Made by a program: the position numbers and the translations under genes. DNA of 64,000 nucleotides from Escherichia coli (GTDB lineage Bacteria > Pseudomonadota > Gammaproteobacteria > Enterobacterales > Enterobacteriaceae), in NCBI RefSeq assembly GCF_051903065.1, contig NZ_CP178438.1; one strand, given 5' to 3'. The notes beneath the pieces were generated by a model. It searched no databases. It saw only the letters and a list, made by a program, of their open reading frames with translations, and was not told the origin of the DNA. Within the stretch, counting starts at the first letter, position 1, and every line of letters starts with the position of its first letter. Positions 9,233 through 13,385 of the stretch are shown here, in pieces.

Positions 9233-9465
9233 TGAGATCCCATTATTTTTATCAATTTTTGTTGCTATCCGATCGCAATAAAGTCACGTCATATGATCAG
9301 ATAATTCTGATAATGATAGACGCTATTTAACACTTCACACGGTTTGTATACGGAAAAGCATTTTGCTTTTTGTATTCAATTTAGACAGAATTTTATTAAT
9401 CATTTCAGGGTAATGGGGTGATGAGATGTTGCGTAACAGGGCCAGAAGGCTAGACTACAAAATAA

Positions 9466-10470
<1,005 letters not shown>

Positions 10471-10565: not shown

Positions 10566-10687
10566 GCAGGTGAATGCAACGTCAAGCGATGGGCGTTGCG
10601 CTCCATATTGTCTTACTTCCTTTTTTGAATTACTGCATAGCACAATTGATTCGTACGACGCCGACTTTGATGAGTCGGCTTTTTTTT
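10566..10687 (+). ncRNA. fnrS: FnrS small RNA (FNR-activated) with intrinsic terminator
   Basis: zntB-dbpA intergenic; canonical terminator GCCGACT-ttgatga-GTCGGC then T8 (10660-10687); C/U-rich single-stranded stretch CTTACTTCCTTTTTT; about 122 nt. Confidence 0.7.
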
Positions 10688-10744
10688 GCCTGTTATTTAT
10701 CAGCGTCTACCCTTTAAGAGTCCACCCAATGACCAGAGGGAAAT

Positions 10745-10918
10745 ATGACGACACTTATTTATTTGCAAATTCCTGTCCCTGAACCGATTCCTGGCGATCC
10801 TGTTCCAGTGCCCGATCCGATCCCTCGCCCGCAACCCATGCCTGACCCACCACCCGATGAAGAACCGATTAAATTGTCGCATCGTGAACGTAGATCTGCG
10901 AGGATACGCGCCTGCTAA
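10745..10918 (+). CDS. hypothetical proline-rich small protein (57 aa) upstream of dbpA
   Basis: ATG at 10745 with GAGGG Shine-Dalgarno 6 nt upstream; translation MTTLIYLQIPVPEPIPGDPVPVPDPIPRPQPMPDPPPDEEPIKLSHRERRSARIRAC; below the 60-aa cut-off of the ORF track. Confidence 0.3.
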   Translation: MTTLIYLQIPVPEPIPGDPVPVPDPIPRPQPMPDPPPDEEPIKLSHRERRSARIRAC

Positions 10919-10947
10919 CTTTGCGTCGATGACCACGAGAATAGATT

Positions 10948-12321
10948 GTGACCGCTTTTTCTACCCTGAATGTTTTGCCTCCCGCCCAACTCACGAACCT
11001 TAATGAGTTGGGTTATTTAACCATGACGCCGGTGCAGGCCGCCGCGCTTCCGGCGATCCTTGCCGGAAAAGATGTTCGCGTGCAGGCGAAAACCGGCAGC
11101 GGCAAAACGGCGGCTTTTGGCCTCGGCTTGTTACAGCAAATTGATGCGTCGCTATTTCAAACCCAGGCTTTAGTGCTGTGTCCTACGCGTGAACTGGCGG
11201 ATCAGGTGGCAGGTGAATTGCGTCGGCTGGCGCGTTTTCTGCCAAATACCAAAATTTTGACGTTGTGCGGTGGTCAACCGTTCGGTATGCAGCGTGATTC
11301 GTTGCAACATGCGCCGCATATTATCGTGGCAACGCCGGGTCGTTTGCTGGATCACTTGCAAAAAGGCACGGTATCACTGGATGCGCTGAATACTTTGGTG
11401 ATGGATGAGGCCGACCGCATGCTGGATATGGGATTTAGCGATGCCATTGATGATGTCATCCGTTTTGCGCCTGCATCTCGACAGACGCTTCTGTTTTCGG
11501 CAACCTGGCCGGAAGCCATCGCTGCAATCAGCGGACGAGTGCAACGCGATCCTTTGGCGATTGAAATTGACTCAACAGATGCTTTGCCACCCATTGATCA
11601 ACAATTTTATGAGACATCCAGTAAAGGCAAAATTCCTCTGTTGCAACGGTTATTAAGCTTGCATCAGCCATCCTCTTGCGTGGTGTTTTGCAATACCAAA
11701 AAAGATTGCCAGGCTGTCTGCGACGCGCTGAATGAAGTAGGGCAAAGTGCATTGTCATTACACGGCGATTTGGAGCAACGCGATCGTGATCAGACCTTGG
11801 TACGTTTTGCTAACGGTAGCGCCCGTGCACTGGTCGCGACTGATGTTGCTGCGCGTGGTCTGGATATTAAATCGCTTGAGCTGGTGGTGAACTTTGAGCT
11901 GGCGTGGGACCCTGAAGTTCATGTACATCGCATCGGTCGTACAGCTCGTGCAGGAAATAGCGGTCTGGCGATCAGTTTCTGTGCTCCGGAAGAAGCACAG
12001 CGGGCCAATATCATTTCTGACATGTTGCAGATAAAACTTAACTGGCAAACGCCGCCAGCTAATAGTTCCATTGTGACGCTGGAAGCAGAAATGGCAACGT
12101 TGTGTATCGATGGCGGGAAAAAAGCCAAAATGCGCCCGGGTGATGTATTAGGTGCACTGACAGGAGATATCGGGCTTGATGGCGCAGATATTGGCAAAAT
12201 CGCCGTGCATCCGGCGCATGTCTATGTCGCGGTCCGTCAGGCTGTTGCTCATAAAGCATGGAAACAGTTACAGGGCGGGAAGATTAAAGGAAAAACGTGC
12301 CGGGTGCGGTTATTAAAATAA
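10948..12321 (+). CDS. dbpA: DEAD-box ATP-dependent RNA helicase (23S rRNA specific)
   Basis: 457-aa ORF with GTG start, Walker A (AKTGSGKT), DEAD box (VMDEADRMLDMGF), SAT and HRIGRTAR motifs. Confidence 0.95.
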   Translation: MTAFSTLNVLPPAQLTNLNELGYLTMTPVQAAALPAILAGKDVRVQAKTGSGKTAAFGLGLLQQIDASLFQTQALVLCPTRELADQVAGELRRLARFLPNTKILTLCGGQPFGMQRDSLQHAPHIIVATPGRLLDHLQKGTVSLDALNTLVMDEADRMLDMGFSDAIDDVIRFAPASRQTLLFSATWPEAIAAISGRVQRDPLAIEIDSTDALPPIDQQFYETSSKGKIPLLQRLLSLHQPSSCVVFCNTKKDCQAVCDALNEVGQSALSLHGDLEQRDRDQTLVRFANGSARALVATDVAARGLDIKSLELVVNFELAWDPEVHVHRIGRTARAGNSGLAISFCAPEEAQRANIISDMLQIKLNWQTPPANSSIVTLEAEMATLCIDGGKKAKMRPGDVLGALTGDIGLDGADIGKIAVHPAHVYVAVRQAVAHKAWKQLQGGKIKGKTCRVRLLK

Positions 12322-12449: not shown

Positions 12450-13385
12450 TTATTTCACTTCAACCACATTCAGCCGTAACTCATCCAACTGATTTTCATC
12501 TTCTTCTGGCTGCCAGCCCGCCGGTTGTAGTGGGATCTCTTCGCGATCAAACGCCAGATCACCCCCGTTAACCACTTCAGAACCGTGGGTGATGCCTTTG
12601 AAATCGAACAGGTTGGTATCGCACAGATGCGACGGCACCACATTCTGCATCGCGCTGAACATCGTCTCGATACGCCCTGGATAACGTTTATCCCAGTCAC
12701 GCAACATGTCAGCAATCACCTGACGTTGCAGGTTAGGCTGTGAACCGCACAGGTTGCACGGAATAATCGGGAACGCTTTTGCATCGGCAAATCGCTGAAT
12801 ATCTTTCTCGCGGCAGTAGGCCAGCGGACGAATAACGATATGTTTGCCATCATCGCTCATCAGTTTCGGAGGCATACCTTTCATCTTGCCGCCGTAGAAC
12901 ATATTTAAGAACAACGTTTGCAGGATATCGTCACGATGGTGGCCCAACGCGATCTTCGTCGCCCCCAGTTCCGTTGCGGTGCGATAAAGGATACCGCGAC
13001 GTAGCCGAGAACACAGTGAGCAAGTGGTTTTGCCCTCTGGAATCTTCTCTTTCACGATACCGTAAGTGTTCTCTTCAACAATCTTGTACTCAACGCCCAG
13101 CTTTTCAAGATACTCGGGCAGAACGTGTTCCGGGAAGCCCGGTTGCTTTTGATCGAGGTTAACAGCCACCAGCGAAAAATTGATTGGCGCGCTTTGCTGC
13201 AAATTGCGCAGAATCTCCAGCATGGTATAGCTGTCTTTACCCCCGGAGAGGCAAACCATGATGCGATCGCCTTCTTCAATCATATTGAAGTCAGCAATGG
13301 CTTCGCCCACGTTACGACGCAGGCGTTTTTGTAATTTGTTCAGATTGTATTGTTCTTTCTTGCTAATTTCTTGATTTTGCGACAT
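12450..13385 (-). CDS. ttcA: tRNA 2-thiocytidine(32) synthetase
   Basis: 311-aa ORF with PP-loop SGGKDS and CxxC pairs (CSLCSR, CNLCGS). Confidence 0.93.

Follow-up and report, generated by a model that had tools for sequence, protein, structure and literature searches.

ynaL, a proline-rich small-protein gene whose 3′ end is overprinted on the promoter of dbpA in Escherichia coli and its relatives

Several well-described bacterial systems come to mind when a short proline-rich reading frame is found just ahead of another gene. The proline-codon leader ORFs mgtP and mgtL, belonging to mgtCBR and mgtA of Salmonella, sense EF-P or Pro-tRNA; they are part of the 5′ UTR of the mRNA which they regulate and act through alternative stem-loops. 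SecM, which ends with ...GIRAGP, TnaC and proteins with ApdA-type RAPP motifs are nascent-chain arrest peptides. Among promoters, rrnB P1 exemplifies the stringently controlled sigma70 type with a long, GC-rich discriminator. The gene ynaL of Escherichia coli resembles mgtP and mgtL in being a short ORF upstream of another gene (dbpA), in having consecutive proline codons and in a translation speed likely to depend on EF-P. It differs from them in that the mapped start of dbpA transcription lies downstream of the ORF body, that alternative structures are absent, and that a peptide of 24 residues, not the proline codons only, appears to be under selection. The YnaL protein is superficially similar to arrest peptides as well, combining a variable N-terminus with about 40 conserved C-terminal residues and an ending ...ARIRAC, which recalls that of SecM. 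However, its C-terminal conservation resides in DNA, and there is no RNA switch downstream.

The window, that is the whole 64,000-nt stretch of E. coli DNA analysed here (RefSeq assembly GCF_051903065.1, contig NZ_CP178438.1), carries this ORF on the plus strand at positions 10745..10918. Both the ORF listing and the raw sequence give an ATG start and 57 amino acids, identical to the peptide quoted in the original prediction. The Shine-Dalgarno sequence AGAGGG (10735..10740, plus strand), which contains GAGG, is located 5 nt before the ATG; in most other genera it reads GGAGG, and across 34 aligned species it is conserved alongside an invariant ATG. Three successive proline codons (10847–10855) form the centre of a DPPPD motif (codons 34–38), and the stop codon TAA (10916–10918) is separated by 29 nt from the GTG of dbpA at position 10948. 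The upstream neighbour is the sRNA gene fnrS (10566..10683, plus strand; Rfam RF01796, 134.8 bits), for which the terminator scan returned an intrinsic terminator with a stem at 10660–10679 followed by a T8 run, and 61 nt lie between the fnrS end and the ATG of the ORF. Downstream, the ORF listing and the annotation place the coding sequence of the ATP-dependent RNA helicase DbpA (10948..12321, plus strand), preceded in the alignments by a ribosome-binding region (10937..10950, plus strand) composed of conserved GAGA(A), 7 nt and the GTG. Thus, the ORF itself, its Shine-Dalgarno sequence, the PPP tripeptide, the 29-nt gap and the position behind fnrS had all been described correctly, as follows from the sequence, the ORF listing, Rfam and the terminator scan. 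The length of this ORF is not significant by itself, since 45 ORFs of at least 30 amino acids are present in 3.3 kb around the locus; judging from the comparisons given below, it is conservation that sets it above chance ORFs.

The ORF was originally considered as unlisted, which is not the case: RefSeq annotates this coding sequence as ynaL, and Pfam holds the corresponding family PF23677. A 601-nt query around the ORF matched 5392 of 5426 complete E. coli genomes, and in every record among the matches listed the coding sequence beneath the match was annotated as “ynaL: proline-rich small protein YnaL” or “protein YnaL”. In an MG1655 record ynaL is a 174-nt coding sequence (WP_001296046.1) between zntB and dbpA. 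The translated product scored 136.9 bits against PF23677 (cutoff 27), with residues 1–57 on profile positions 1–57. The same 57-aa sequence was reported by VanOrsdel et al. (2018, Proteomics, PMC6001520) between fnrS and dbpA at K-12 coordinates 1409308–1409481, which map onto 10745–10918 of the window. The two proteins are identical, and at the DNA level the only difference is synonymous, codon 48 being GAA in the window and GAG in K-12. In that study chromosomally SPA-tagged YnaL was detected by immunoblot and was noted to be positive in a tetracycline ribosome-profiling screen as well; the only remark on genomic context was that ynaL adjoins dbpA and might share an operon with it. Our literature search found no other paper discussing YnaL, and both ynaL and dbpA are absent from the supplements of Adams 2021. 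The ORF is, therefore, an already known gene, annotated and present in the literature since 2018, and of the two roles originally proposed for it that of a real small protein proves to be correct and already published, in agreement with the purifying selection registered in its core.

A protein search found YnaL only in Enterobacteriaceae, in genera that include Escherichia, Citrobacter, Salmonella, Enterobacter, Klebsiella, Raoultella, Kosakonia, Leclercia and Lelliottia. For comparative analysis dbpA loci were fetched from 80 species. A proline-rich ORF directly upstream of dbpA was present in 68 of them, with the ATG, the Shine-Dalgarno sequence and the reading frame kept. In 66 of these 68 loci fnrS was located 231–285 nt before dbpA; of the other two, one contig has only about 200 nt upstream of dbpA and gave no fnrS match (L042), and the other contains a partial fnrS only (L011). 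All differences in ynaL length that we saw were in frame, including an 11-codon deletion in one E. coli strain and a duplication in one Salmonella variant. A search for frame-breaking indels in E. coli was likewise fruitless: the two length-variant matches (H19 and H30) still encode identical YnaL. Conservation of the ORF compared with synonymous drift had been suggested as a check on the prediction, and it came out in favor of the protein, with protein-level selection in the core and no frame-breaking indels seen among relatives.

This selection is not uniform along the gene. In the protein alignment approximately the first 15 residues are variable, and residues from about 16 to 57 look almost invariant. 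Nei-Gojobori estimates, obtained over 68 loci (67 species and the window itself), divided the gene into segments conserved in different ways. Codons 1–17 (10745..10795, plus strand) vary between genera both in sequence and in length, as seen in the protein alignment and in per-locus translations. Codons 18–41 (10796..10867, plus strand) encode the proline-rich core DPVPVPDPIPRPQPMPDPPPDEEP and bear the mark of purifying selection at the protein level, with dN/dS of 0.069 at dS of 1.25, to be compared with 0.042 at dS of 1.40 for codons 2–121 of dbpA. Nucleotide diversity at the first, second and third codon positions was 0.08, 0.05 and 0.51 in the core versus 0.10, 0.05 and 0.48 in dbpA. Because so low a dN/dS is accompanied by third-position diversity like that of dbpA, the core is selected as a peptide, and the sequence of this peptide therefore matters.

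The rest of the gene behaves differently. In codons 42–46 synonymous divergence (pS) was 0.05, against 0.6 in flanking codons, and in codons 50–56 it fell to 0.005. Six third positions in a row are frozen in codons 51–56, rare codons AGG and ATA being among them; over 400 codons of dbpA, used for comparison, 4.5% of third positions are equally invariant and their longest run is 2. Codons 47–49 (10883..10891, plus strand), which separate the two blocks, evolve near-neutrally (dN/dS 0.70, dS 1.09). In 12 species, including E. cloacae, Lelliottia, Huaxiibacter, Pseudescherichia and Kosakonia cowanii, an in-frame stop occurs at codons 47–48, right after ...IK(L/M)S(H)R. According to the DbpA NJ tree such stops arose independently several times, and beyond them the codons of all 12 species still read RRSARIRA(C/I/N). 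Because synonymous sites in codons 42–46 and 50–56 are almost unchanged, the apparent conservation of the YnaL C-terminus is best read as conservation of DNA. The reading of ...RSARIRAC as an arrest motif was rejected on the same grounds: its codons show hardly any synonymous change, and this stretch is still found behind early stops and in Kluyvera, which has no ORF. The C-terminal “RSARIRAC” would then be a by-product of promoter sequence, and the last ten residues or so would be dispensable to the protein.

Kluyvera and one Kluyvera-like genome (L078) provide an independent view of these blocks. Their fnrS–dbpA spacer is 118–119 nt long and lacks the proline-rich ORF. It nevertheless retains TGTCGC-N12-GATCTGCGAGGATACGCGCC, and the spacer of this type keeps GATTA..TGTCGCAT-N10-AGATCTGCGAGGATACGCGCCTGC. 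Since in the single-gene DbpA NJ tree Kluyvera types nest within the YnaL-positive clade, the absence of ynaL there points to a secondary deletion.

The identity of the conserved DNA became clear from comparison with outgroups. In Cedecea, Dryocola, Atlantibacter and Siccibacter fnrS is not found directly upstream of dbpA (in the fetched DNA only Dryocola has it, about 2 kb from dbpA), and the region 70–35 nt upstream of the dbpA GTG contains a textbook −35/extended −10 promoter. In one example it reads AAATGACC-N17-TAGAAT-GCGCACC, where TGC directly precedes the hexamer; another reads CATGACC...TCTGC TAGCAT ACGCGTC. The general pattern, found at the aligned position, is ATGACC, a 17-bp spacer and TGCTAGAAT or TGCTAGCAT with a subsequent GC-rich stretch. 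MAFFT aligned these promoters base for base with GATCTGC GAGGAT ACGCGCC of E. coli. Among the columns without variation in the 13 aligned sequences are CTG, AG and T, matching the extended −10 TG, A−11 and T−7.

The downstream block (block 2; 10892..10913, plus strand) occupies codons 50–57 of ynaL and, as follows from pS and from the outgroup alignment, represents the core of the dbpA promoter; it is this block that aligns with TGCTAGAAT or TGCTAGCAT and the GC-rich stretch behind them. It is composed of the extended −10 element TGc (10897..10899), the −10 hexamer GAGGAT (10900..10905) and the GC-rich 8-nt discriminator ACGCGCCT (10906..10913), all on the plus strand. The hexamer coincides with the consensus at 3 of 6 positions only, and the promoter may therefore need an activator. 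The upstream block (block 1; ATTAAATTGTCGCAT, 10868..10882, plus strand, codons 42–46), the one with frozen synonymous sites which is retained in Kluyvera, falls into the −35/upstream region, and its sequence GATTAAATTGTCGC aligns with the −35 region GATAAATGACC of the outgroups, the spacer of the E. coli type being 3–4 nt longer. Candidate −35 hexamers are TTGTCG at a distance of 20 bp from the −10 element and GTCGCA (3 of 6 matches) at 18 bp. Other types of recognition, namely sigma54, sigma28, sigmaE and a long spacer of the MerR type, were compared with the blocks by eye and rejected, giving poor matches or a non-conserved spacer.

The start of dbpA transcription has been mapped experimentally. 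Table S1 of Kim et al. (2012, PMC3415461) gives for dbpA a start site at position 1407501 (plus strand) of NC_000913.2 with 126 reads and a 34-nt 5′ UTR, and the sequence listed there as 50 nt upstream plus the start site, ACCGATTAAATTGTCGCATCGTGAGCGTAGATCTGCGAGGATACGCGCCTG, ends with ...GAGGATACGCGCCTG. In the window this corresponds to the G at 10914 (plus strand), which is the second base of ynaL codon 57 and lies 9 nt after the −10 hexamer. The position comes from a single published data set by way of its supplementary table (PMC3415461), and in the excerpt of this table that covers the locus no start site is listed between those of fnrS and dbpA. The tables of Ettwiller 2016 gave no match for the coordinates of the locus. 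Because the start site at 10914, the homology with outgroup promoters and the two frozen blocks all coincide, we conclude that the final 16 codons of ynaL house the dbpA promoter; and since the mapped start falls in the last of them, ynaL is not part of the dbpA mRNA so defined.

The architecture of this promoter is similar to that of rrnB P1 in its long, GC-rich discriminator and in a start site located 9 nt past the hexamer, and it differs in that its −10 element is of the extended type with a poor hexamer (GAGGAT) and its spacer is unusually long. By analogy, the GC-rich discriminator of 8 nt may make dbpA expression sensitive to growth rate or ppGpp. Control of the stringent type would suit dbpA as a gene of ribosome biogenesis.

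As to the protein, AlphaFold supplied with the family alignment predicted no secondary structure for YnaL (pTM 0.22), giving locally confident extended geometry for residues 21–40, and no sequence relative of YnaL was found in PDB. Thus, the model describes YnaL as a short acidic peptide without predicted secondary structure, probably polyproline-II-like. In this it is comparable with the proline-rich spacer of TonB (NCBIfam NF008084, Pfam PF16031), since both are acidic XP-repeats expected to form a polyproline-II rod, but YnaL has neither a transmembrane anchor nor the C-terminal domain of TonB. The matches between the two are compositional only, with 20.8 bits at a cutoff of 315 and 11 bits at a cutoff of 33.

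The PPP of the DPPPD motif is kept in 64 of 68 species; the exceptions, with PSP or PPQ instead, are E. albertii, two species of Citrobacter and a single strain of C. amalonaticus. Polyproline is the strongest stalling sequence, and aspartate before or after a diprolyl motif causes stalling as well (PMC4176338). Because of DPPPD, synthesis of YnaL can be predicted as likely to depend on EF-P. The original statement that the PPP tripeptide would need EF-P is, hence, a reasonable expectation: the tripeptide and its stall context are there, and the alternating P-x-P is seen in the core. The supplementary tables of the EF-P/EfpL profiling paper do not contain ynaL, and our search of the literature found no data on ynaL in efp mutants.

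Taken together, these observations are most probably accounted for if ynaL is a genuine translated small-protein gene, whose core is selected as a peptide and whose 3′ end is the overprinted promoter of dbpA. Codons 1–17 would be free to vary. Codons 18–41 would encode the functional part, an acidic PxP-rich peptide with DPPPD, extended and without predicted fold. Codons 42–57 would be conserved as DNA, serving consecutively as the −35/upstream region, the neutral spacer, the TGn-extended −10 element and the GC-rich discriminator of dbpA. The frame of ynaL may thus run through an older dbpA promoter until it reaches a stop, and dbpA would be transcribed mainly from this internal promoter on mRNA without ynaL. 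The YnaL product would act in trans as a polyproline-II-like peptide. The overprinting of the ynaL 3′ end on the dbpA promoter is the new element of this work, and it is this overlap that makes the C-terminal conservation of YnaL misleading.

The second of the two roles originally proposed, that of a stalling leader peptide coupling dbpA to translation status, found no support. According to this idea, a pause at DPPPD under limitation of EF-P or Pro-tRNA changes dbpA expression in cis on a shared transcript, for which attenuation, Rho-dependent polarity in the C-rich region or termination and reinitiation at the dbpA GTG 29 nt further on were proposed as routes. It is attractive in that DPPPD combines strong stall contexts and that ynaL directly precedes dbpA in every case. 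Being rich in C (45%, with a C/G ratio of 2.3), the core could be rut-like if untranslated. Both DbpA and EF-P reach higher levels in the exponential phase, which is a correlation only. A shared transcript could be provided by a second promoter. The upstream alignment suggests a candidate for ynaL (10686..10713, plus strand) composed of TTGCCT (10686–10691), a 16-nt spacer and TACCCT (10708–10713), its CTACCCT motif being conserved across genera and present also in Kluyvera; the consensus promoter scan called no promoter for ynaL. A minor bicistronic ynaL–dbpA read-through transcript might arise from there, and one can speculate that Rho polarity on it might be supported by the C-rich core.

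However, the start site of dbpA was mapped in the last codon of ynaL, and none is listed upstream of it, down from fnrS, in the excerpt of the published table. Regulatory structures that could serve as an attenuator are not seen either. The terminator scan found no terminator after that of fnrS (10683) up to dbpA. RNAalifold across the ynaL–dbpA junction gave −4.3 kcal/mol with no compensatory pairs and no covarying structure, and folding of the 5′ UTR (z of +0.98) or of the whole junction (z of +0.92) was no better than that of shuffled controls. Neither a terminator nor alternative hairpins nor a structure sequestering the ribosome-binding site is, thus, available between ynaL and dbpA. The geometry is not fixed, as 14, 19, 23, 27–30 or 57–63 nt separate the ynaL stop from the dbpA GTG depending on species, and the stall site, lying about 90 nt upstream of the dbpA ribosome-binding site, could not act on this site directly. 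The replacements of PPP in four cases and the presence of the same dbpA promoter without the ORF in Kluyvera also speak against coupling, and a peptide needed for stalling only would not require 24 residues at dN/dS of 0.07. All this makes a cis-acting leader unlikely.

Two more specific roles may be imagined at this locus, and as a pair we consider them quite unlikely. YnaL could act in trans as a polyproline peptide, binding to DbpA or to immature 50S particles near the peptidyl-transferase centre or the exit tunnel, as a self-made counterpart of proline-rich ribosome-binding peptides. Otherwise, ynaL could be an ORF gated by EF-P or proline, which controls read-through and occlusion of the embedded dbpA promoter.

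It might also be supposed that ynaL is translated noise, that is, that the fnrS–dbpA spacer happens to be open and owes its conservation to the dbpA promoter or other DNA constraints. The unconstrained N-terminus and the 16 C-terminal codons conserved as DNA and not as protein are in line with such a view, as are the loss of ynaL in Kluyvera, where dbpA and its promoter stayed, and the fact that no function for YnaL was found in the literature searched. But the core contradicts it, being as diverse as dbpA at third positions (0.51 versus 0.48) and nearly fixed at first and second ones, with dN/dS of 0.069. Together with the invariant ATG and Shine-Dalgarno sequence, with indels that were all in frame and with accumulation of YnaL to a detectable level (PMC6001520), this renders pure noise very improbable.

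Equally little credence can be given to the idea that the frozen 3′ blocks are not a promoter but an RNA element, such as an autoregulatory site of DbpA, an sRNA target or a recoding signal, even though block 2 contains an SD-like GAGGA and the blocks are conserved at fixed spacing. They lie mostly upstream of the mapped start site and should hence be absent from dbpA mRNA, they show no consensus structure or covariation, they are single-copy in E. coli, and they are homologous to the textbook −35/extended −10 promoter of the outgroups. In Rfam only fnrS passed the gathering threshold, and the blocks gave no match even at E≤5; with RNAalifold and single-sequence folds not significant either, a riboswitch or other RNA element was rejected. 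A repeated element or a motif shared by a regulon was ruled out by the single-copy state of the 57-nt region and of the 18-mer in E. coli. Mimicry of 23S hairpin 92 and a site of pairing with FnrS were considered by eye only and dropped in view of the promoter explanation and the start site.

Rival reading frames were rejected as well. Starts of the overlapping ORFs at 10857–11003 (plus strand), 10869–10994 (minus strand) and 10700–10936 (minus strand) are not conserved by inspection; the spacer varies in non-multiples of three, and the minus-strand ORF is the antisense of CCN codons. Fusion of YnaL with DbpA by frameshifting or read-through is precluded by TAG at 10942–10944 in the dbpA frame and by a frame relation that varies between species.

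Returning to ynaL as a small-protein gene overprinted on the dbpA promoter, this locus shows clearly how a coding sequence can lie over the promoter of its neighbour, promoter DNA making up roughly one quarter of the “conserved protein”. It cautions that functional residues or arrest motifs of small proteins may be assigned misleadingly if they are inferred from amino-acid alignments alone. A tag at the 3′ end of ynaL or its deletion will disrupt the dbpA promoter, which matters for the design of such constructs. The 24-residue core of YnaL appears to be constrained across Enterobacteriaceae as strongly as a housekeeping enzyme and would, therefore, be a reasonable target for functional work.

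The PxP repeats of the proline-rich protein YnaL vary in length without loss of frame in E. coli E69 and in a variant from Salmonella enterica (P0053). In the former 11 codons were deleted from ynaL, converting PVPEPIPGDPVPVPDPIP to PVPDPIP, while the latter carries a 10-residue duplication, PDPRPHPQPM; both events look like slippage between near-repeats. At the nucleotide level, most E. coli genomes have a single mismatch to the window within the 57-nt segment 10862–10918: 5385 of 5392 matches in complete genomes fell into the 95–99% identity band and 6 reached at least 99%. Codon 48 of ynaL (position 10888) is GAA in the window versus GAG in K-12, a synonymous difference. A single mutation is enough to turn GAG into TAG, and a TAG stop at this very codon is found in several of the 12 species with an in-frame stop at codons 47–48. 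The locus is chromosomal, yet six of the 5392 matches lie on records typed as plasmids; these are probably mis-assigned replicons or large integrative elements. In E. coli B1.H1.18 (NZ_CP146564.1), the annotation lists dbpA as a pseudogene with a frameshift, and ynaL is intact and identical.

A G/W/R-rich ORF of 78 amino acids traverses ynaL in antisense direction (10700–10936, minus strand), but it mirrors the CCN proline codons, has no independent support and was rejected as a gene. Directly downstream of the fnrS terminator, at positions 10700–10716, lies the motif GCGTCTACCCT(A/T)AAAG, which is conserved between genera. It is also present, as CGCTACCCTG, approximately 90 nt upstream of dbpA in three Kluyvera or Kluyvera-like loci without ynaL (L070, L072 and L078). 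TACCCT within this motif, located 16 bp after TTGCCT, may be the −10 element of the ynaL promoter, or something else; the list of Kim et al. (2012) contains no transcription start at the motif.

Upstream of this region, 13 nt before the zinc transporter gene zntB, a 15-codon ORF with the RefSeq gene label ydaN and the product “protein YnaN” (approximately 9426–9473; 1427–1474 in the dbpA locus L001) may be a leader-type micro-ORF for zntB. On the other side of dbpA, ttcA is followed by the site-specific integrase gene intR (12450–13385 and beyond; 5438–5601 in L001), and the window therefore enters the Rac prophage junction there.

The dbpA promoter has a GC-rich discriminator of 8 nt, ACGCGCCT (within 10892–10914), with transcription starting 9 nt downstream of the −10 hexamer, and a GC-rich stretch was likewise found at the dbpA promoter of the outgroup genera. 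In its discriminator and start spacing this promoter resembles stringently controlled ones, which makes it a candidate for the ppGpp/DksA-sensitive type. Stringent-type control of dbpA would fit the role of its product as a ribosome-assembly helicase.
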